64,000 bases of DNA from a virus (Duplodnaviria; Caudoviricetes): IMG/VR virus record IMGVR_UViG_3300013383_000026, positions 21,954-85,953 of that record; one strand, 5' to 3'. Position 1 is the stretch's first letter, and each line of letters starts with the position of its first letter. Below the pieces are notes generated by a model. The model was given only the letters and a program-made list of their open reading frames with translations, was not told where the DNA came from and searched no databases. Shown here piece by piece: positions 1 to 32,386 of the stretch. The translations under genes and the position numbers were made by a program.

Positions 1-1068
1 AAATATGGTTATAGTAGACCGTTTTTTGATGATTTAGTTGCTATTAGTCTCATATCTGATGTATGTGATATAACAACATTAGAAAATCGAGCCTATCTGT
101 ATAGTGGGTTAAATAATGTTACCAACCCATTCTTACGATTATTGTTTGAAAAGAATGGTAAAAAATATGGCTATACACCTGAAGCTATAGCATGGGGTAT
201 TGCGCCGTTGGCTAATGCATTAGCAAGAGTTGATAATCAAGAGACTAAATTGTTGTTCTTTAAGGCTCTTGTAGGTGATATAGATGGCAATGAGGCACTA
301 ACAGATTTAAGGCGAATTAAACGTCAGCAAGATGAAGCGGTTAAATTAGCTACTAATATCATCGAGCCAAAATTAAATCTTGACCATAAGGTAATTATTG
401 GGTTTGGTGATGTAGAGGATAAAAATTATCTTGGCTTAATAGCTAATAAATTTGTTAGTAAATATAATAAGCCAACTATATTGCTTAGAGAGTCTAATAA
501 TACAACATGGTCTGGCTCGTTGCGTAGTCCAGTTGAATTAGCCGATAAAATCAATACATCTAAGTTTGCTAAAGCTATAGGGCATCAATCGGCTTGTGGC
601 ATAGTAGTTAAGAAATCACAGCTAAGGCGACTTGCTAATTGGCTTGATTCACTTGACTTAGATGTTCAGCCCGATATACCTGTTACGGCTATTGTTGATT
701 TTAACGATATATCTGTTGAGTTGTGTGAAATAATAGATTCTAATAGGCAATTATGGGGGCATGGCTTAGATTCGCCTACATTTTACATATCTACTATTGT
801 TACTCAAGACAATATGGCTGTGTTCAAAAAGAGTACAAATACCATTAGAATATCACTGGGAAATTTAACTTGTTTGAAGTTTTTTGCTAAAGATGAAGAT
901 ATATCCATGCTGACAAGTAAAAAAAAAATTAGGCTTGAAATGATAGTAAAAAACTGTAAGGTTAATGATTATAATAATGTTTTTACGCCCCAATGTGAAA
1001 TAGATAGGTATGAAATAAGTGACGTTGAAGATGGCAATGAATTAAGTTGGGAGGATTTGTTTAAGTAA
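1..1068 (+). CDS. recJ: RecJ-like DHH-family ssDNA exonuclease (5'-truncated by window edge)
   Basis: Frame is open from base 1 (DDLVAISLISDVCDITTLENR, cf. RecJ DLVALGTIADVVPL..ENR). DHHA1-domain motifs SGSLRS and GHQSACG. Confidence 0.8.
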   Translation, partial: KYGYSRPFFDDLVAISLISDVCDITTLENRAYLYSGLNNVTNPFLRLLFEKNGKKYGYTPEAIAWGIAPLANALARVDNQETKLLFFKALVGDIDGNEALTDLRRIKRQQDEAVKLATNIIEPKLNLDHKVIIGFGDVEDKNYLGLIANKFVSKYNKPTILLRESNNTTWSGSLRSPVELADKINTSKFAKAIGHQSACGIVVKKSQLRRLANWLDSLDLDVQPDIPVTAIVDFNDISVELCEIIDSNRQLWGHGLDSPTFYISTIVTQDNMAVFKKSTNTIRISLGNLTCLKFFAKDEDISMLTSKKKIRLEMIVKNCKVNDYNNVFTPQCEIDRYEISDVEDGNELSWEDLFK

Positions 1069-2395: not shown

Positions 2396-3023
2396 AATAG
2401 AAACAGTATTTAATCGTTCTACTGATGGCGATAAGAGACTCGTTTGGGGCGATTATAGAAATGAAGCTGTTGAGTATCTTGCTGATAATATTTGGCAGTT
2501 CACAGAAAAGATAGATGGAACAAATATTAGAATACATTGGGATGGACATGATGTAAAAATAGGCGGCAGAACTGATAGAGCACAGATTCCCAATCATCTC
2601 ATGGATTATCTGAGCGCAACATTTCTTACACCTGAAGTTGAAGGACTGTTTGAACAGACTTATGGTGAGAAAGATGTAATTCTGTTTGGTGAAGGCTATG
2701 GCGCTAAGATACAAGGCTGTGGCGGTGATTATCGTTCTGATGTATCGTTTATCCTGTTTGATGTATTGATTGGCGATAATTGGCAGTCTCGTGAATGGGT
2801 CGAAGCTACGGCTAAAATGTTCGATGTTGATGTCGTTCCTATTGTTCTGGAAGGTACTATTGGTGATGGGATAGATTATGTAATGCACCATAATAACTCT
2901 ACTATTGGCAATGCAATAATGGAAGGCGTTGTTGGTAGACCTAAAGTTGAAATGAAAGACCGACTCGGCAATAGAATAATCGTTAAAATTAAATGGAAAG
3001 ATTTTAAGAATTTCGTAGAATAA
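2373..3023 (+). CDS. ATP-dependent RNA ligase-like nucleotidyltransferase (Rnl2-type)
   Basis: Motif I FTEKIDGTNIRI, motif III LFGEGYG, IIIa FILFDV, IV EGVVGRP, V IVKIK. Confidence 0.75.
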   Translation: MMMRGYHKIETVFNRSTDGDKRLVWGDYRNEAVEYLADNIWQFTEKIDGTNIRIHWDGHDVKIGGRTDRAQIPNHLMDYLSATFLTPEVEGLFEQTYGEKDVILFGEGYGAKIQGCGGDYRSDVSFILFDVLIGDNWQSREWVEATAKMFDVDVVPIVLEGTIGDGIDYVMHHNNSTIGNAIMEGVVGRPKVEMKDRLGNRIIVKIKWKDFKNFVE

Positions 3024-3026
3024 TAC

Positions 3027-3055
3027 TTGACAACCTCCTTGATTTGTGATATATT
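3027..3055 (+). promoter_or_regulatory. sigma-A/70-type promoter
   Basis: TTGACA-17 nt-TATATT with extended TG; AAGGAGG at 3071-3077 before ATG 3085. Confidence 0.7.
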
Positions 3056-3084
3056 ATGGTTACATAAATCAAGGAGGTTATTCA

Positions 3085-3249
3085 ATGAACATCAAAAAAT
3101 CTGATAAGCTCAAGAAATGCGCAATAGAGATAATAAAATATTGTAATAAAACCAAGAATTGTCACGAATGTTGTCTTTGTGTTGATGGATTTTGTCCATT
3201 TAATTCCGCTCCAAGTGGATGGGATTTTGAATATGAGGAGGACGAGTAA
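3085..3249 (+). CDS. small Cys-rich hypothetical protein
   Basis: Start moved to ATG 3085 (strong RBS); CHECCLC...CPF motif. Confidence 0.55.
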   Translation: MNIKKSDKLKKCAIEIIKYCNKTKNCHECCLCVDGFCPFNSAPSGWDFEYEEDE

Positions 3250-3515
3250 TGAATAATGGCAACGTGATAACAAGCTTAAATACTCTTGAATGCGACATAT
3301 GGAAGAGGTATAATTGCATTTGTTCTTTTATAGAAACTTCGCCCAATTCTAACAAATTTGAAATTCGTTGCCAATTCAAAGACGCAATTAATTCGTCTTG
3401 GACATTTACTTATGTATTTAATATATACGATTTAATAACCAATTACAACTCTGTTTTAGGCAAGATTATAATTGAGCTTGAAGAAGAATGGATGAATAGG
3501 ATATATAGAATATGA
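3249..3515 (+). CDS. hypothetical protein
   Basis: TAATG coupling with upstream gene; no recognisable motif. Confidence 0.5.
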   Translation: MNNGNVITSLNTLECDIWKRYNCICSFIETSPNSNKFEIRCQFKDAINSSWTFTYVFNIYDLITNYNSVLGKIIIELEEEWMNRIYRI

Positions 3516-3712
3516 ATAAGATATATAAATTGGCAGACGATTATATTGGTACGCTCGATAAGATATGTCATAACCTTGAACTCGCATGGAAAGAGCATTG
3601 CCGAAAATTGCTTTATGCCGAAGAAATCTTGACAAATTCACACATATCTGATATAATCTCTTATAGAAAAGGGGTGGATTGGAATTGGCTAAATCTGGTT
3701 GGGTTGAAATAA
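3512..3712 (+). CDS. hypothetical protein
   Basis: ATGA coupling with upstream gene; no motif. Confidence 0.45.
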   Translation: MNKIYKLADDYIGTLDKICHNLELAWKEHCRKLLYAEEILTNSHISDIISYRKGVDWNWLNLVGLK

Positions 3713-5370
3713 AAAAGAAATATAAGATATATTCGACAAGAAAATATAATTCTATTAAAAGAATATATTCCAGCCCAGCCGAATTTGAAGCCAAGGTAAG
3801 AGCCGAGCCTTATCATATGATACATGAATATCTTGATAAGCCATTCAAAAACGCCGACACTCTTATTCTTGAGTTATTCCCCGGCTTACACGTATCGCTT
3901 GAAAGATGCAAATGGTGCTGTTTATATCTACTTAAACAAAATGAAGCCAAAGGACATACCAAATTAAGTGCAAGTATATTATTTAATCAAATAAACCAAA
4001 ACTATCCCGAGCTTATTGATTATGTATATGAAGCTGTTACGACTTGGGATAGAATATATTATGATAAATCGTCTAAGGCTACAAGTATAGCGAGCACATA
4101 TTGCAATGAGTCACTTGTTGCCGAAGAGATAAAAAAGCGAACAAACAATCCGCTTATTGATAACATGGATTGGCAAAAATATCGTAATATAGATGATATT
4201 GAACTTACCGATGAGCAGATGAGTTTGCTTGGGGCTGTTTGTAATAATAGTATTGTTATGCTGAATGGCAGCGCCGGATGTGGCAAGACTTCCGCTACAA
4301 AAGCATTAACACAAATGCTGTATGATAATGGTAAATCATTTACCCTATTAGCTCCAACTGGTATAGCTGCAAAACGGCTTAGGCAAGCAACAGGCAAAGA
4401 TGCTTCTACTATTCATCGATTTTTAGCAAGTGGGCAATCTATGGGCGAATATCTTATAATAGACGAAGGGTCGATGCTGGGCATAAATCTATTAGGGCTA
4501 TTATTTACTAATCTATCCAAAAAGACTAAAATAATTCTTATTTGTGATGAAGCTCAGTTAGCATCAATATCTTGTGGCAACATAGTAAAAGATATAATAG
4601 ATAGTGGCATAGTCCCAATAGTTAATCTGACTCATGTATTTCGATATGGTACAAGCGGACTTACAACTATAGCTACTGATGTTCGCACAGGTAAAGAAAT
4701 ATCGCCCGATACAAATTTTGATGATTATTCATTTATTCAAATAGATAAAAAGCCGATAAATGATATATTAAATGTATATGCCGAATTACTTGAAACATAT
4801 AAACGAGACGATATATTGATATTATCTCCGTTTAATGTTAGAGAAGCCGGTACATACGTTATAAATAAAGCCATTCAAGATAAATATAATTCTAATCCAA
4901 CGTTAACATCGTATAATAGACAGTCTGTTGAAATAGACTTCAAAGCCGATGATATAATAGTTAATACAGAAAATAACTATCACATGATGGGCGAAAATTT
5001 CTCTGATATACCTGTTATGAATGGGGACATTGGCAGAGTATTGGATTATTATGAATCGAGTGGGCTGCTTGAGGCTCAGTTTGAAAGCGGCATAGCTTAT
5101 CTTGAAAAGGGCGATATATATAAGCAACTATTAGGCTATTGTTTAACCGTACATAAAGTACAAGGCATGCAAGCCAAAGCCGTAATTGTTGTTATTGATA
5201 AAAGTCATGGTTTCTTTTTGACACGAAATTTGTGTTATGTGGCTATGAGCCGTGCGCAAGAAAAATTGGTAGTAATCGGCGATATAGATACCATAAATGA
5301 ATCACTAAAAATTCAAGAAGAAAAACGCCGCAATACTTGGCTAAAGGAGTTGTTAGTAAATGGCAATTAA
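3679..5370 (+). CDS. recD: RecD2-like superfamily 1B helicase
   Basis: Walker A GSAGCGKTS, IIDEGSM, DEAQLASISCG, YCLTVHKVQG, YVAMSRAQEKL. Confidence 0.85.
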   Translation: MELAKSGWVEIKKKYKIYSTRKYNSIKRIYSSPAEFEAKVRAEPYHMIHEYLDKPFKNADTLILELFPGLHVSLERCKWCCLYLLKQNEAKGHTKLSASILFNQINQNYPELIDYVYEAVTTWDRIYYDKSSKATSIASTYCNESLVAEEIKKRTNNPLIDNMDWQKYRNIDDIELTDEQMSLLGAVCNNSIVMLNGSAGCGKTSATKALTQMLYDNGKSFTLLAPTGIAAKRLRQATGKDASTIHRFLASGQSMGEYLIIDEGSMLGINLLGLLFTNLSKKTKIILICDEAQLASISCGNIVKDIIDSGIVPIVNLTHVFRYGTSGLTTIATDVRTGKEISPDTNFDDYSFIQIDKKPINDILNVYAELLETYKRDDILILSPFNVREAGTYVINKAIQDKYNSNPTLTSYNRQSVEIDFKADDIIVNTENNYHMMGENFSDIPVMNGDIGRVLDYYESSGLLEAQFESGIAYLEKGDIYKQLLGYCLTVHKVQGMQAKAVIVVIDKSHGFFLTRNLCYVAMSRAQEKLVVIGDIDTINESLKIQEEKRRNTWLKELLVNGN

Positions 5371-24654: not shown

Positions 24655-27600
24655 TCATGCTCTCGCATAGCTATATTGATATGCAAGATTCTTTAAGCCA
24701 TCTAAAAACTCACCAGCATTAGAAACGCCCGGCAATTCAAGCCGACCAATATCAAATGAATAATTAGTCACTACTGCTCGACCTATATTAGACAAAACAT
24801 CCTTAACATTGAGACTAGATAGCGCCATAAGATTCTTTGTTGCTTCAGCCGGAATTATACCATCACCATGCCCAATCACACGCATCTCAGGGCCATTTTC
24901 ACCAACTAAGGACAAGCCACCTCTGGCATTAGTTGTACCATGAGCATATTTGCCCGTTAACTGGTCAACTTCTCTTTGAGCCTTTGCTATGGCATCAAGA
25001 TTCTGAATATACTGGAAACGACCGCCAGTAAATGCCAATATCCTATTCTCTTTGGCTTTAGCTAAATCGCTTAATTTCTCTTCAAGTTGAATCTGCTCTT
25101 CGAGAGACTGATTTTGATACTTATATATCTCTTCTTCATGTTGCCAATAATCATCTTTAGCATCGGCAAGATTCTTTAAGTATCTTTCATTCATTATCTC
25201 TAAATCACGATAATATTGTGCTTCAGAGATAATATCCATATTCAGCCAGTGTTTCTTTTCTTTCAGCCATTCATCAAAATTCTTCTTTAAGTCCTCGCCA
25301 GAGCCGGGAAGCGCCGTAACACCAGAATAAGTCGGGTCATTTCGTCTATCAGGATATTTAGGATTATTCTTAGTACCATTAGCCATAGCCGGGATAGGAT
25401 TCTCAGCTACATCGTCAACTGTTAGCTTGCGATCTTTAAGAATATCTTGAGTTTGTCTCGCCGTATAAATCTTAGCACCTTTAGGTATTGGCTGAACGGT
25501 TTCTTTGCCGTCATTATAAATCTGCCCAACACCATTATGTACGACTAATTCGCCGGAGGAACCATTGACAGGCGCACCGTCATTTATTAATGCCAATCCA
25601 CCGGGAGCCGATTTGGCACCCTTGGCAAATTTATAAGCGCCCGTTTTTGTGTAGTTAACGGTAACATTTATTGTTTTATCGTGGAGCGAATTCAGTTCAT
25701 TCTTTACAAGATTAATAGCTTGTAAAGCATTAAAAGCATTACAAGAAACAGAAAATGATTTATCGCTAATATGATAGTTTTGTACTATCCTAAGAGACGT
25801 CATAGCTGAACTCGTATTGGCTCTAACATTGACAACAGGCTGGTAAGAAGTCAATGCTTGTGCTGTAGATTGAACAACTTGTAATTGTCCAGCAACCTCG
25901 ACAGCATTGGTTGTTATCTCAACATTAACACCAGCAATTATATTGTTGACTTCTTGAACAACCGAATTGATTTGGTCTTTAGCTGCGGATACATCAGCCT
26001 CAAGCGTTACTTTAACTGTTTTGCCGTTTACCTTATCTATCCAACTATCAATTTCTTGCAGAGCAGTAGCAAGTGCTTGACCCTCTTCTGCTGTAGTAAC
26101 AGTTATTTGCTTTTGTTCATCCTCAGTATCAAGAGAGTTTAATTTAGCATTAGCCTCATCCGCATTCGTCTCGACGTTAATGTTTTTATCGCTAAACTTG
26201 ATACCCTCGGCTTCTACCAATTTAGCTATAAAATCGTCTATATTACCGATTTTAGATAAATCAATAGCTCCGCTCTCTGCTAGACTCAGTAATGCCGTTT
26301 TTAGTCCCTCAACAGAAGTTATACCTAATTCAGAATTATTAACAAGTGCTTTAGCAACCTCTCCTATCGCACTTGAGCTATTCCTCATGTGGTCGGGGAA
26401 ATTAGCTAGAGCTTTGTCCACTGTTTCGACTGATTTATTGTATTCGTCTAATGCAGCTTGCCCATTTTTATAAGCTTCCAGAAGGCTATTGTAGCCTGAT
26501 AGCCAGCTCAACTCAGCATCGGACAATTTTTCACCAGTTTCTAACCTAGCTTCTAACCCATCGGCTATTGCCTTATTTGAATCTATATAGCTTTTTGCCA
26601 GATTTAGCTGTTCTTGTGTAGGCTTAACGCTTTTGCTTATGTTGTCAGCCAAATCTTGAAATGCCGACGAAGCATCCTCTAAACTGGTAGTGACATCTTC
26701 TATATGATAGCCATAATCATTTATCTCAGCTATCATTTCTTCGGTAGACTTAATAGTGCCATTCGCCTTAACCCACGAAAGTCCTAACGCATTAGCATAT
26801 TGCTCGGCAGCATCCGTCGCATCGTGAAATGTGCTAGGTAACTTTTCTAGGGCGGCTTGCTGGTCGGGAGGCAACTCCGCCCTTTTTATGCGGATTTTAT
26901 CTTCTGCAACGCCAAAAGACGTGGACGATGTATCTCTAGCCGTCACACCCATTTTAACGCCGTCTTTGGCAGCTTCTTGGTATGCTCCTATTGCCGCCTC
27001 AGTTTGCCTCTGTTTTTCGAGGTCTATAAGTTGCTCATAATATTCTATCTGGTCTTGAAGAACTTCTATTTCATGCTGTTGCTCACTTGTTCTATCGGCA
27101 TATGACGTATTATTCAATTCATCAAGCTTCTTCTTTGCATTATCTAAACTCTGCTGATATTCATCTGCCTTTTGTTTAGATTCGTCAAAGTCACCCATGA
27201 ATTTATCGAATTTGCCATCTGCATCTTTAATAGCCTTAACGATTAATATAATAGCCGCCGCGATCGCGCCAAGCCCTAGTGCAATTACTGTCCATTTAGC
27301 TCCGCCAGCTAATGCGGCAAACGCCTCGATGCCACTAGTAGCCGATTTAATAGTAGTAGCAATTTGTGCTATTTTGCTGATAAATTCACCAGCTATACCA
27401 GTAATGCCAGTAATCGCACCGCCAAATAATACCGCCTTGGCAACGGCTTGCCCCATATCGGTATTGGCAAATTCAAGTAATTTTGTGCCAGCGTCTAATA
27501 TCGACCCAATAAATTCTTTTGTAACAGTATTAGATGCAAAATTTTCATATGCGGCTTTAAGATTCTGTAATTTTGCCTCTATAGATTCCATATAAGAGGC

Positions 27601-30600
27601 GTTTTCATTCATTGCGGAATTTTGTGAATCATAGGCCGTATTAGTGGCATTTATAGCCGCTTGGAAGTTATTCATGACTGCGCCAAATACTTCAAACTGG
27701 TTCTTACCAGCATAAGCCAATGCTATAGACTGCTGTTCAGAACTTGACATATTATCCCAGTCGGATTTCAAATCCTTGAATATCTGGAATGTCGATTTCA
27801 TATCTCCCGTGGTTTCATCCATTAGAGATAAAGATTTTGTTACGCCGCCAACTTTATATTCAATTTCTCCTGCATCATTGGCGGCCGAAGCAAAGTTGTT
27901 ACCGATGGTTCTAAGCAATTAATTTCTCATATGTTTCCATATAAGTCAGACTATTTCTTCACCCTCAACATTACTTGTAGGGGCAACCCGTTTTGCTTTC
28001 GCTACTCTATAAAAGATAGTCGTTTGACACATCCCTATTCGGGACTTTGCGACCAAACACCCATTGCTACGATACTTAGGCTTTTGACCATATACCATCT
28101 CTATTGTTGTTTTACTTTCGTTACATTCATATTTGCATATTTCATCAAATATTGTAGTAATAGAGCTTTAGGGGTTACTGGTTTTAGGGTTGTGCTTAAA
28201 TGCACATTACTGTACATTGGGGGCTATAATTCCATCGTAATTATTGTTACCCTCGTGCAACTTTTGTGGCTTGTCCGGTCATAATTTCCGTGCCTGCCGT
28301 AACTACATTTGTTATTAATAGAAGGTCGTTAATCTTCTATGAATTGTATAATTTTTTCTTTATAAGTTTCGTCTTGTATATCTTTATAACTTATTCTTAA
28401 TAACGGGATATTCCATTGTTTGCAATACTCGTTTTTTATAATATCGTGCTTTTGTGTGGCTTCAAAAGTTTTTTGAGCAACTTCATTGCTAATTTGATTA
28501 AAATTACATGGCTTAAAATGTCCCTCTCCATCAACCTCTATTAGCCCCTGATTTTTCTCTATCCAGAAATCAAAAGGCAAAGGGATGACATCTTTACATG
28601 AATTTATTCTATATTGATAAATATATCTTATATTATTATCATCTAAGAATTGCTTAACAATTCTTTCGTATCTTGAGCTACTTTTTGCACATTTATCACA
28701 AGTTATTTTGCCCTGATAAAAAGAAGAAATTGATGTTGTAAATATATCGCCACATTGACATCGGCATTTTATACCTTGCCGCGTCCATTTTTTATCATCA
28801 CAAAAATCAATAACCTCGGATTTTATACCTCTGGTTCGGGCATAAAGATTAGCATTATAGATATAATTCTTTTTATTGGTTCTAACATCAAAAATAGCTA
28901 TTTGACGGCCTGATTTTAGTTTATTATAAGAAATAAAACCCTTATAACCATCCTTATCCTCGACCTCTAAATATTCATTTCTTAAAAAGAACTCTGGCTC
29001 ATTTAGAACTGTATATCCTTTAGCTCTAAAAAATTCCAATGTCTCCTGTTTGTCTTTACGATGTGATTTTCCGCGATTTTTTATAGCACATTTATTACAT
29101 TCAGAAACATATGTTAACGTTTGAAGATTATCCCACGTTTTATTAAACACATTTCCACATTTACATCGCATAGTTATTAGGACTCGTTTGTGCTTTGATT
29201 TGGTTATTATTTCTATGCTTAATATTTCAGCATTGGGGTCTTTCTTCTTTATAAATGTTTCTATATTTTCTTTCCAAAAAGGATTGGATAGAGAAAAGAA
29301 CCTTTTACTCGTAGACTTGCCTTGCTTATGCGTAATATCTACGACACTACACCAACTCTTCAACCCATCTTTTTCACAACAAATATTTTGCTGAGTATTT
29401 ATATATTCTTCTTCAGGTGTTAAAATATGATAGCCAAATTTATTCAATCTTTCCTTAATTTCTTCATAACTTAATTTATCCAATTATACAACTCCTCATA
29501 CCTTTCGTATAAGATTAGATTATATCTTACATTCTTTAATAGAATGTCAACCCATTTCCCCAAACTTTTGGGTATGCCACTAACGACAATGGACTTACTA
29601 ATCGTTGAACCTTCATCTAGTATCTATAGATGCTTGGCTGCTGATTGCCCAATCCTTATCTTTGTCACCATACCAAGTTCATTGCGCTTGCCGTTATAAT
29701 ATTTCTATTATAATTTGGTAGATAAGGCTCTAAGGGGTTCCCAGTCAATTAGGGTTGTTTTAATAGACCAAGTTTTAGCCTATGGTTTGTTCAAAATCAT
29801 TGCCCAAAACGCCCATTGCAGAGCTGGTTTTAGACAGAGCCGTAGCAACATCCGTAGACGAAACAGCAAAATTATTACTGACGGCATTGATACTATCTAT
29901 AATGTGAATCGCGTCCTCAGCAGGAATATTGAACGCCTTCATTTGAGATATTATAATCGCCGCACTATCACTTGCAGATATTGCATCATCAGCAACGTTC
30001 TGGTATAATGTTGCTACTTGTGCCAGAGTCGCGGAATCTTCATCATTGAATGAGTTTTTGCGAAATTCCAATAAATGTTCAGTAAGTTCGTTAAGCTTAC
30101 CAGCAGCACTACCCGCATCTTATAGTTTCCTACAAGTTCAGACTATATCTTTATCTATTAACAAATAGATATGGGGCGCTTCGATTTCACTTGAAACCTA
30201 CAGATATTATTTCAATCTTAGTCGTTGAACCTTCCAATAACTCAATATTGGCTTGGCTGCTGATTACCCAATTCTTACAATTATCACGCTTTGGTATGTA
30301 AGACTCTAAGGGTTTCCCAGCAATTCACCCCATTCATTATATATGTTGCCATATACTCAACCAAATTATTTAGTTGCTGCCTCAATCATTTCTGACTGAT
30401 TAATTAAGGCCAAAAATAATGTTCATCAAAAAATTCACCATACTGCTCAAGCCCCTCTTCCTCATCAGTTTTTATTTGAGTCCCAGAAGAAGTATGCTTA
30501 TTACTGTCATTTGTTTTGGGCTTTGTAACTAATGAATGTATAATACTTGCAAAAAATGTAATATACACAACCGGCACAATAATCACTACAACAATAATCA

Positions 30601-31837
30601 CCATAAACATATAATCAACCTCCTTTGGTTGATTCGACTATAACACATAATGAATCTTTTGTCAAGTAGTTTTCAATTACTTATCGACTATTTCTTCATC
30701 CCATAAATTGGTGGACTGCTCTGTATAGTCTGTTGACACATCCCTCATCAGGACTTCGCGCCCAATCTGCCCTTTTGTCCCGTTTATTATATAATATTCG
30801 TGACATAATACTTAGGTCTTTCGACCATATATCATCCTTGCCGTTTTATTGATTTCTCACCATGTAATTGCATGATTTTATATTATATGGAGAAAATCTA
30901 CGCATTTTTTACAGCGAGGTTATGTGTACTTCAACACATTTCTCCAACGACTTTTATACAAATTTACATATTTTCACACTTAGGCTTATCTCATCCTTAT
31001 GTTGTAGTGACAAGGCTCTTGAGGCTTTCAAGGGTTTAGGAGCTATTCTTCGTGCTGGTTTACCATCCCATCACGGCGGCTCAGAAAAGTTAACCGCTAC
31101 GTCCAACTTGCTTACCCATATCGGCAAGCTTTTTCGTATAATTATCTAACGACTTACCAGACAAGTCAGAGACTTTCTTAACGTTATATTCAGCACAGTT
31201 CGCTACACCATGCCCGTCTTATTGACCGCTTTATATCTCTATAAAGACTAGACTATATCTTCATCTTATTAAAGATGTCTGCCGCTGTCTTGCGCTTGCA
31301 AGCACTTAGTCGTTGAGCCTTCTTCATAATTATATCACATCGCCACATATAAATCAATATAATTTTAGAAGCTTGGTTGCTGATTGCCCATTATTATAAC
31401 ACTTAGGATTTAACCATATGTCATGCTCATACTTTTTTCTGCTTTCGCCACTATCACATCCATCATTTCTAATCATGCTGTAGTGTATAAGCCTTTAGGG
31501 GTTTCCAGCAATTCGACAGATATTTGTTCTATTATTTCACAATAATAGTGAGCTATTTTGTTAACTCTGTTTGTGCAGAATCTAACTTCTTTGTCTGTTC
31601 GGCCATACTAGTTATTGCTTTGGCACAGTTATCTAATATGAGTCTGTACTGTTGATAAGTTAAACCAGCGGCCTTGGCGCTTTCACTGGCCTTTTCTGTC
31701 GCTTCGCCCAGTTTCCCAACTTCTTCAGTACCACTCGCCTTAACCGTTAACTTGCTTTGCTTTTCTTGTAGTTTAGCATCAATCTCGCTAGTATCAAGGT
31801 CAACGCCAACTTTAATTTTCCATGCACTATTCGCCAA
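24655..31837 (-). CDS. tape-measure protein (TP901-type core), six exons, ~1331 aa when spliced
   Basis: Exons 31837-31564, 31181-31093, 30395-30372, 30068-29777, 28305-28250 and 27915-24655 sum to 3996 nt in one frame. Junction peptides TEFKKVSDL, GRSGSEMIEAATEFRKNSF, QTIGLVTAGTE, KVARGLRTIG. Confidence 0.85.
27916..28249 (-). mobile_element. group I intron 5 of tape-measure gene (ORF-less, atypical 5' junction)
   Basis: R TCAAACGACTAT and S AAGAAATAGTCTG (P7 GACUA/UAGUC). In-frame join is CGAGGG|TAAC...AATTG|CTTAGA. Confidence 0.8.
28306..29776 (-). mobile_element. group I intron 4 of tape-measure gene with homing endonuclease
   Basis: Canonical GGCT|AAAAC...AAATG|TAGTT; P1 AUAGGCU/GGUCUAU; R GTTCAACGATTAG, S AAGATATAATCT; ORF lies 3' of P7. 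Confidence 0.85.
28329..29483 (-). CDS. intron-encoded Vsr/PD-(D/E)xK-like (EDxHD-type) homing endonuclease
   Basis: Repeated CxC/CxxC modules plus C-terminal LPFDF...LIEVDGEGH...KHD...LLRI. Confidence 0.75.
   Translation of the reverse strand: MDKLSYEEIKERLNKFGYHILTPEEEYINTQQNICCEKDGLKSWCSVVDITHKQGKSTSKRFFSLSNPFWKENIETFIKKKDPNAEILSIEIITKSKHKRVLITMRCKCGNVFNKTWDNLQTLTYVSECNKCAIKNRGKSHRKDKQETLEFFRAKGYTVLNEPEFFLRNEYLEVEDKDGYKGFISYNKLKSGRQIAIFDVRTNKKNYIYNANLYARTRGIKSEVIDFCDDKKWTRQGIKCRCQCGDIFTTSISSFYQGKITCDKCAKSSSRYERIVKQFLDDNNIRYIYQYRINSCKDVIPLPFDFWIEKNQGLIEVDGEGHFKPCNFNQISNEVAQKTFEATQKHDIIKNEYCKQWNIPLLRISYKDIQDETYKEKIIQFIED
30069..30371 (-). mobile_element. group I intron 3 of tape-measure gene (ORF-less)
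   Basis: Canonical GCAACT|AAAT...TATTG|GAATTT; P1 CAACU/GGUUG; R GTTCAACGACTAA, S AAGATATAGTCTG. Confidence 0.85.
30404..30610 (-). CDS. intron-borne single-pass membrane protein (68 aa)
   Basis: Hydrophobic N-terminus MFMVIIVVVIIVPVVYITFFASIIHSLV, acidic tail; RBS AAAGGAGG; own promoter. Confidence 0.7.
   Translation of the reverse strand: MFMVIIVVVIIVPVVYITFFASIIHSLVTKPKTNDSNKHTSSGTQIKTDEEEGLEQYGEFFDEHYFWP
30637..30665 (-). promoter_or_regulatory. sigma-A-type promoter inside intron
   Basis: TTGACA-17 nt-TATAGT with extended TG. Confidence 0.7.
31182..31563 (-). mobile_element. group I intron 1 of tape-measure gene (ORF-less)
   Basis: Canonical GAGT|TAAC...TAACG|TTAAG; P1 GAGU/GCUC; R CTCAACGACTAA, S GAAGATATAGTCT. 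Confidence 0.85.
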
Positions 31838-31852
31838 TATCCATCACACTCC

Positions 31853-32386
31853 TTATTGTGATTTATTCTCTTGGCTACGTCTATATTTTACAATTTGACT
31901 ATAAGCTATAAGTATGCCCTCGGCAATATCATCATCATTTAATTTGCTTTTAGGCGAAACCCAATTAAGCTTAATGCCAAACTCATCATTCACCGTCTGT
32001 ACGGCTTTCTGTTTAAGTATATCTCTTTGTAATCCTTGTCGAGTACCATCATATAAGTCAAGCTCTTTTCGCCAATGAACGGGTAAAAGAAATATTGGTT
32101 TACAATTATATTGACTACATAAAGCCAATATCATACCTTGCATAGCGCCTAATTTTACCAATGTTGACGAGCCGGGCTTTAATGGCACATCTTCTACATA
32201 CGCCTTTATTGGGTGGTATTTGCGTATTATATCACCCAATGATGTTGCTTGTTCTTCTATACGTTCTCGCCAATCTTTATTCTTTGGCTTAATTTTGCCG
32301 TATGCTATAAGACCAGATTTATCAAATATACTATATCCAGTACAAGATGTAGATAAATCTAAGCCCATAATACAATTACTTCTCAT
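31853..32386 (-). CDS. RuvC-like Holliday junction resolvase
   Basis: MGLDLSTSCTGYSI, YVED, LGAMQG, DDIAEGI acidic catalytic motifs. Confidence 0.75.
   Translation of the reverse strand: MRSNCIMGLDLSTSCTGYSIFDKSGLIAYGKIKPKNKDWRERIEEQATSLGDIIRKYHPIKAYVEDVPLKPGSSTLVKLGAMQGMILALCSQYNCKPIFLLPVHWRKELDLYDGTRQGLQRDILKQKAVQTVNDEFGIKLNWVSPKSKLNDDDIAEGILIAYSQIVKYRRSQENKSQ

Follow-up and report, generated by a model that had tools for sequence, protein, structure and literature searches.

A group I intron of a phage tape-measure gene with a predicted promoter-driven cassette for a small membrane protein

The cargo intron and its place in the tape-measure gene

The window analyzed here is a stretch of 64,000 nucleotides (nt) comprising bases 21954-85953 of the 85,953-bp IMG/VR virus record IMGVR_UViG_3300013383_000026, which is estimated to be 97% complete. 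The element in question is an intron of the tape-measure gene that contains a small open reading frame (ORF), further called the cargo. All genes around this cargo intron are on the minus strand, and the features below are on that strand, in coordinates of the window, unless the plus strand is named. The tape-measure gene (24655-31837) is read as six exons and five introns, the exons being 31837-31564, 31181-31093, 30395-30372, 30068-29777, 28305-28250 and 27915-24655 (274, 89, 24, 292, 56 and 3261 nt, respectively), and the joins were checked by colinearity with the protein of Enterocloster phage CB473P1 and with relatives. The cargo intron (30396-31092, 697 nt) is the second of the five, and is supported by a covariation fold and by relatives in which the same site is interrupted or uninterrupted.

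It lies between exon 2 (31093-31181), the 89 nt of which end in KKVSDLSGKSLDNYTKKLADMGKQVGRSG and are colinear with the uninterrupted CB473P1 protein and with relatives, and micro-exon 3 (30372-30395), whose 24 nt encode SEMIEAAT, in register with DEMVEAAT of CB473P1 and SEMVEAAT of relatives. Joining of the exons yields ...VGRSG|SEMIEAAT followed by EFRKNSFND..., in register with the uninterrupted tape-measure protein of CB473P1 (1509 amino acids, aa) and with intron-less relatives, according to tblastn and inspection.

Two sets of relatives, numbered with the prefix L, were used. A protein search with the next exon gave 15 related viral loci, and a sequence pattern derived from P6-J6/7 matched 54 viral contigs of IMG/VR, so that, together with the window, 55 copies of the intron are available.

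The internal guide sequence (31076-31087) pairs with both exons. In P1, the exon end GCGGU (31097-31093) pairs with GCCGC (31080-31076), with a U.G pair at the splice site (31093). P10 is formed by UCAGAAA, with which the 3' exon starts, and UUUCUGA (31087-31081), located immediately 5' of the P1 strand. P10 has 7 bp in the window and 10 bp in L024, most relatives having 5 bp; its strand always adjoins that of P1. At the splice site, the P1 pair and the glycine codon of the exon covary (U.G in 11 cases, C.A in 2, G-C in 3), GGU occurring with G as the guide base, GGC with A, and GGG with C. The lineage of L005-L008, L021 and L064 has the C.A pair in place of the near-universal U.G, and here the pair changes together with the glycine codon GGC. 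At the other end, the last eight nucleotides of the intron (uuaaucaG, 30396-30403) finish with the terminal G30396, and wherever the downstream exon could be located in relatives, a terminal G precedes it (...G|TCNGARATG).

The fold was obtained by RNAalifold on 18 diverse copies, which gave P1, P2, P5 with its extensions and P6-P9, while P3 and P4 were added by hand. The consensus has 56 pairs in 13 helices, including the P3/P7 pseudoknot, and 95.7% of the cells are paired, compared to 27-43.5% with slid partners. Compensatory changes are seen in 33 of the 56 pairs, and the covariation score is 0.505 versus at most 0.096 for slid partners, none of 500 shuffles reaching the observed value. The P2 hairpin (31051-31075), with the conserved loop GAUGGUAAA, has compensatory changes in six of its seven pairs and is paired in 100% of cells; the P9 hairpin (AAGUA ... 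UACUU, 30664-30682), the last bases of which overlap the -35 box discussed below, has them in all five. P3, P5, P6, P7 and P8 are also backed by compensatory changes, and P4, having 3 bp only and being invariant in most sequences, is uninformative for covariation.

The 3' half of the catalytic core (30686-30730) comprises P7, P3', P8 and J8/7 (GAAGAAA); P7 and J8/7 resemble the consensus of the Rfam group I intron model RF00028, and P3, P7 and P8 covary. P7 is formed by GACUA (30730-30726) and UAGUC (30690-30686), the first G-C pair being invariant in 18/18 sequences, and GAGC of P3' (30721-30718) pairs with GCUC (31043-31040). The likeness to RF00028 consensus strings is seen both in P7 and in J8/7 (GAAGAAAUAGUC). 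Because the guide pairings, the exon colinearity, the core homology, the covarying fold and the core motifs all agree, we consider the interval 31092-30396 a genuine group I intron on the grounds of its sequence, as had been claimed in the original prediction, and its splicing is predicted. In the region of the P5 extension (intron nucleotides 120-236, approximately 30856-30973) the copy in the window also has about 117 nt of additional peripheral sequence, which all 54 relatives lack.

The cassette itself starts directly after P9 with a predicted promoter of the sigma-70/sigma-A type (30637-30665), in which TTGACA (30665-30660) and TATAGT (30642-30637) are separated by a 17-nt spacer ending in the TGn of an extended -10 element. 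It matches the consensus in 11 of 12 positions and is the top-scoring match within 29400-32000. The scan gave 14 promoter-like sites versus 10.0 +/- 2.9 in shuffles, so a single match is not beyond chance; the promoter is taken as such because it is conserved across the copies of the intron. In 55 of 55 copies TTGAC[AT]-16..18-TAnnnT is found 94-115 nt past the core motif and directly after the P9 hairpin, and in the 37 distinct leaders TTGAC and T-A---T reach 2.0 bits each, with a variable spacer and TGn in 35 leaders. An own promoter of the host consensus type, as originally claimed, is hence a feature of every relative.

Downstream of the promoter, a Shine-Dalgarno sequence, AAAGGAGG (30626-30619), lies mostly in the loop of an 8-bp hairpin with arms AATCAACC and GGTTGATT (30613-30634), read from the sequence and having analogues in most lineages. 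The predicted transcription start, at about 30631-30629, falls within the 5' arm of this hairpin. A reading of the hairpin (30634-30613) as a terminator was rejected, as it has three G-C pairs only and no proper U-tract, and a terminator within the tape-measure gene would be harmful.

The cargo ORF (P0001, 30404-30610) starts with ATG at 30610 and encodes 68 aa ending in ...EQYGEFFDEHYFWP, its TAA stop codon (30406-30404) being located 8 nt before G30396. Residues 2-28 of the protein are hydrophobic and form a single N-terminal transmembrane helix, followed by a juxtamembrane stretch rich in Lys and His and then by an acidic aromatic tail. According to the positive-inside rule, the predicted topology is N-terminus out and C-terminus in. 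The promoter, ribosome-binding site, hairpin, 68-aa ORF and intron ends are each found on the minus strand exactly where the original prediction had placed them.

Relatives of the intron and the cargo family

The tape-measure site of the cargo intron is interrupted in L005-L009, L011, L012 and L015-L018 and continuous in L010, L013, L014, L019 and CB473P1. In each of the 55 copies a Shine-Dalgarno sequence comes after the promoter, and then one, two or three small ORFs in tandem, whose products have one to three hydrophobic segments. The related intron of L011 occupies the same site and lacks cargo. A search of homologous introns at this site had been suggested as a check of the original prediction, and cargo variation, the cargo-less intron and intron-less alleles were all found. 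The same prediction had described the intron as a neutral landing site for the gene. The role of a carrier is retained here and the word neutral is not, as the promoter and one protein family are present in 55/55 copies, which characterizes an integral module and not an occasional passenger.

The collection of cargo proteins comprises 41 distinct sequences of 33-110 aa. The 20 representatives that were aligned all agree in layout and in an invariant aromatic-Gly close to the C-terminus, with little sequence otherwise in common; frequent forms of the aromatic-Gly motif are (Q/E)(D/E)KYDN(D/E)WG, EEYG..D..WG and KYWGTIDYWEDK. In close variants of the window protein the 19 C-terminal residues are unchanged. 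A profile search of 1.84 billion representatives gave 73 clusters at 50% identity, nearly all of 50-130 aa. Pairwise BLASTP of two cargo types yields no alignment, and the claim of one family is made because of the common layout, the invariant aromatic-Gly and the profile matches. The single-protein search of viral contigs with the cargo ORF (its own record excluded) gave no match, and an alignment of cargo proteins was too divergent to be used in searching for loci. Within five whole phage records, members of the family are found only inside the cargo intron.

The ratio of nonsynonymous to synonymous substitution rates (dN/dS) is 0.02-0.28 within the cargo types having several DNA variants, the type of the window not being among them; these related types are under purifying selection. 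Because of this selection and of the lack of any match to nuclease families in Pfam or PHROGs, the cargo ORF is, judging from its sequence, neither an endonuclease nor the relic of a decayed one, in agreement with the original prediction.

Exchange of the cargo is seen among introns whose ribozymes are nearly identical. In 96 pairs of introns the ribozymes are at least 88% identical and the first cargo proteins less than 35% identical. In example pairs with near-identical ribozymes the identity is 93-95% in the core and promoter, 70-81% in the flanking exon and 28-60% in the cassette, and the divergence between close copies starts right after the -10 box. By these comparisons the ribozyme-promoter module behaves as a constant frame round a hypervariable slot, being more conserved than the host gene. 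This pattern is compatible with recent horizontal spread, and RNA constraint could contribute to it.

A second intron is located 24 nt downstream of the cargo intron in the window and in L041. In L012 a further intron (Rfam match 2913-3173) comes after the cargo intron, and directly behind it there is a 266-aa ORF (3184-3984, plus strand), in which the motif ...IEVDGELHY..., typical of Vsr/DUF559-like nucleases, was read by eye. Judging from its sequence, this ORF is a candidate helper that may mobilize the neighbouring endonuclease-less cargo intron, and hitch-hiking on such a neighbouring downstream element, as in L012, is a possible route of spread.

The intron motif has a single match in about 185,000 representative genomes (L075, UREA01000005.1), a phage-sized contig of 81,289 bp binned with an uncultured 'Tenericutes' metagenome-assembled genome from the gut (UMGS910). 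This contig is probably a binned phage genome, and the binning hints weakly at the group of the host. Integrated prophages with the intron motif were not found in these representative genomes, and blastn and tblastn searches of a cultured-phage collection with the intron and the ORF gave no match.

Predicted expression and proposed function of the cargo

In most lineages a hairpin joins the region of the -10 box and transcription start to the region of the Shine-Dalgarno sequence and AUG, the arm sequences differing among lineages. Interaction energies were calculated assuming a transcription start 7 nt past the -10 box, with 100 shuffles of the upstream part per leader. For the 37 leaders the median energy of the upstream-downstream interaction is -7.3 kcal/mol, compared to -3.4 kcal/mol with the upstream part shuffled, and in 13 of them at most 5 of 100 shuffles reach the observed energy. 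From this modelling a hairpin switch is plausible as a genuine tendency of the family, depending on the exact start site and weak in the window.

In the mechanism that we infer, which includes splicing, promoter activity, timing, topology and function, the two kinds of transcripts would have different fates. On the long late transcript, the ribozyme from P1 to P9 (31092 to approximately 30664) would pair with both exons via one guide, remove all 697 nt and join ...GRSG to SEMIEAAT. The 3' tail from P9 to the terminal G is dispensable for the core fold and has the predicted host-type promoter directly after P9. On transcripts starting at about 30630 the Shine-Dalgarno sequence would be exposed or less occluded, and the 68-aa membrane protein would be made, with its conserved aromatic-Gly tail in the cytoplasm. 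Since the promoter could be read by host RNA polymerase, the protein may be made at an early stage of infection or in a cell with a resident phage genome, the tail genes being expressed later or not at all; expression in a lysogen is speculative. On the long precursor RNA, the hairpin round the ribosome site would limit the entry of ribosomes into the intron, as in the intron ORFs of T4. We hold with about even confidence that the self-splicing intron of this late gene doubles as the chassis of an independently expressed accessory cassette.

What the accessory protein does is a separate and more tentative matter. It could be an effector at the membrane, either shielding an infected or lysogenic cell from other phages (superinfection exclusion) or targeting a host membrane protein or defence system; we favour this proposal over other functions, at a confidence clearly short of even. 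It is suggested because the promoter in a late gene is of the host type, the membrane protein has a conserved cytoplasmic motif, purifying selection within types is combined with replacement between close relatives, and tandem paralogues occur. A broader scenario, which seems to us doubtful at present, is that the intron lineage might be a dedicated gene-delivery platform. The constant ribozyme and promoter would spread among divergent tape-measure genes without an endonuclease of their own, perhaps by co-conversion with the neighbour intron 24 nt away (which has an endonuclease gene in some relatives, such as L012). The slot would contain exchangeable arms-race membrane proteins that make the carrier phage or its host immune to rival phages, and this benefit would pay for the intron.

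Several observations weigh against the picture of a spliced intron with a switched cassette for a conflict effector. RF00028 gives no match to the cargo intron even at E<=10 (the window, the interval 29500-32000 and the core alone were scanned). In favour of the intron, its core is homologous to that of the ORF-less intron at 28249-27916, which reaches 36 bits with RF00028 (gathering threshold 50) and whose relatives in L013 and L014 exceed this threshold with 60-61 bits; the subtype is handled badly by Rfam's general model. The cargo has no significant match in Pfam, PHROGs or PADLOC (defence), and its matches in a protein atlas were all unnamed viral clusters scoring below 0.9; therefore the proposed function is drawn from general features. 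No terminator was found after the cargo ORF, hence it is not a self-contained moron unit. As for lysogeny, the phage encodes a tyrosine recombinase that is short (283 aa), and the single match among the representative genomes is the one described above. Finally, in the window the upstream-downstream interaction is -3.4 kcal/mol versus -3.1 kcal/mol in shuffles, 41 of 100 shuffles reaching the observed value, and the unpaired fraction from the Shine-Dalgarno sequence to AUG is 0.40 in the long RNA versus 0.50 in the short one. The silencing hairpin of the original prediction is thus retained as a tendency of the family and is weak for the copy on which it was proposed. Early or lysogenic expression and a role in exclusion, from the same prediction, are kept as proposals, so that its interpretation is supported in part.

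Among other functions, an improbable one, yet the best placed of these, is that of a holin- or antiholin-like protein timing lysis. Holins are small proteins with one to three membrane segments and a charged C-terminal tail, and the cargo fits this general description in size, number of transmembrane segments and charged C-terminus. Nevertheless, a consensus host-type promoter implies early expression, whereas holins are expressed late and are encoded beside the endolysin, and the cassette sits in the tape-measure gene. Moreover, one to three divergent paralogues and rapid exchange of the cargo would be unusual for a lysis clock, and no holin family was matched in the family libraries.

Marginally less probable is a small membrane toxin of the type I kind, or an addiction element penalizing loss of the intron and thus acting on behalf of the intron rather than of the phage. 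In such toxins, control of translation by a hairpin at the ribosome site is common, and the hairpin here would fit; the protein is small and hydrophobic and has a charged tail, and the intron lacks its own endonuclease yet is more conserved than the exons. However, the strand opposite to the ORF has no promoter of quality for an antisense RNA, only a 9/12 match at 30392-30420 (plus strand), and the conserved cytoplasmic aromatic-Gly suggests a specific partner and not generic membrane damage.

An aid to the host gene or to the intron itself, that is, a helper of tail assembly or injection, or a splicing cofactor, is more improbable still. The strict linkage to the tape-measure gene in all 55 copies and the absence of the family elsewhere in the five whole phage genomes would agree with it, but related phages do without the cargo, having intron-less alleles or the cargo-less intron at the same site, and a membrane protein with a host-type promoter, silenced on the late transcript, would run counter to the needs of a late assembly factor. 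A splicing cofactor would also be unusual in that known maturases are RNA-binding proteins and not membrane proteins.

Least probable is that there is no intron, the tape-measure pieces being translated separately around a small gene, or that the ORF is a decayed endonuclease or a chance frame: the region is unscored by Rfam, and phage genes split by free-standing nucleases have been described (PMC10448857), but the exons of 89 and 24 nt have neither a start codon nor a ribosome site, the P1/P10 guide and the covarying 13-helix fold argue for a ribozyme, and the cargo family is under purifying selection with no similarity to nucleases. The accessory cassette housed in an intron stays our preferred reading.

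Known systems and neighbouring introns

In the nrdD gene of phage T4 the intron ORF is located downstream of the catalytic core, as in the cargo intron. T4 intron ORFs have their own promoters, and a hairpin forming only on the long transcript occludes the ribosome-binding site, limiting the entry of ribosomes into the intron and protecting splicing (PMC2988022). The cargo intron is similar in having its own predicted promoter inside the transcription unit of the interrupted gene and, as a family-wide tendency, a hairpin at the ribosome-binding site. Still, the ORFs of T4 encode homing endonucleases, are driven by middle or late phage promoters and reside inside early genes, whereas here a small membrane protein has a host-consensus promoter inside a late structural gene, and the logic of timing would be reversed. 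Unlike the T4 ORFs, the cargo is exchangeable and sometimes present in several copies.

Introns in tape-measure genes have been described in two other groups. Prophages of the Bacillus cereus group have the tape-measure introns TMP-IVS1/2/3, which are ORF-less or contain HNH or GIY-YIG genes (PMC2504315), and Vibrio phage ICP1 has a tape-measure gene of three introns and four exons, whose splicing was shown by RNA sequencing and reverse-transcription PCR (PMC10448857). In contrast to the cargo intron, the introns of these phages are ORF-less or have HNH or GIY-YIG genes, and no promoter-driven non-nuclease gene is described in the accessible portions of both papers (PMC2504315, PMC10448857). 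The similarities are the same host gene, several introns per gene, presence and absence at fixed sites and the existence of introns without a complete endonuclease gene.

An IStron is a group I intron fused at its 3' end to an insertion sequence, and the cargo intron resembles it in having foreign coding DNA in the 3' part of the ribozyme that would be removed at the RNA level. Unlike IStrons, in 55/55 copies only small membrane ORFs are found between P9 and the 3' splice site, with no transposase and no insertion sequence ends, and the cargo of 33-110 aa belongs to one dedicated family with a fixed promoter. Morons offer another parallel. The superinfection-exclusion membrane protein gp15 of HK97 is encoded beside the tape-measure gene by a moron of this temperate phage, and the cargo likewise is a small membrane-protein gene with its own predicted promoter in the late tail-gene region. 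Unlike morons, which lie between genes and usually have their own terminator, it is inside an intron within coding sequence and has none.

Full-text searches of a limited literature found no description of a phage group I intron with a promoter-driven non-nuclease membrane-protein gene, which is not proof that none has been published. Independent, T4-like expression of an ORF from a group I intron is known; the cargo intron differs in its exchangeable non-nuclease membrane-protein cargo. Bacterial and phage group I introns are treated as carriers of homing endonucleases or as empty ribozymes. In at least 55 gut-phage contig copies the slot of the endonuclease is taken by a fast-diversifying membrane-protein cassette, with a predicted promoter of the host type, in an essential late gene. 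If splicing and promoter activity hold true, such introns would be insulated expression sites for early or lysogenic accessory genes in late operons, the retention of an endonuclease-less intron would have a selective basis, and the cargo would constitute a new family of small phage membrane proteins, whose cytoplasmic aromatic-Gly points to a specific partner. For annotation it matters that tape-measure genes of such phages are called as fragments and that cargo genes are easily missed.

The other introns of the tape-measure gene differ in how they are seen by Rfam. RF00028 recognizes 31573-31229 as a group I intron with 101 bits and 30381-30119 as another with 97 bits, and has a sub-threshold match at 29857-29501 (38 bits). 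Intron 3 (30069-30371) probably ends about 50 nt past its Rfam match, at uug|GAAUUU (30069|30068), where the 3' exon pairs with AAUUU adjoining the P1 strand and the join SEMIEAAT|EFRKN is the sequence of relatives. Given an end at 30069, the in-frame GSAAGKLNELTEHLL, aligned as an exon by tblastn, would belong to the tail of intron 3; the tblastn alignment 'NELTEHLL' was rejected as an exon, since it sits in this 3' tail.

Intron 4 (29776-28306) contains in its 3' part, downstream of a complete ribozyme core, a 384-aa ORF (28329-29483) resembling HNH homing endonucleases of Thomasclavelia, Streptococcus, Enterococcus and Lactococcus phages. In Thomasclavelia phage TR-TP1 the annotated tape-measure gene is split by two HNH endonuclease-like genes of that kind. 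The ORF-less intron 5 (27916-28249), with a core homologous to that of the cargo intron, has P9.x hairpins in the place of the cassette. Its 5' splice site follows a G (codon GGG) and not the usual U, as is also the case in the L012 and L057 lineages of the cargo intron.

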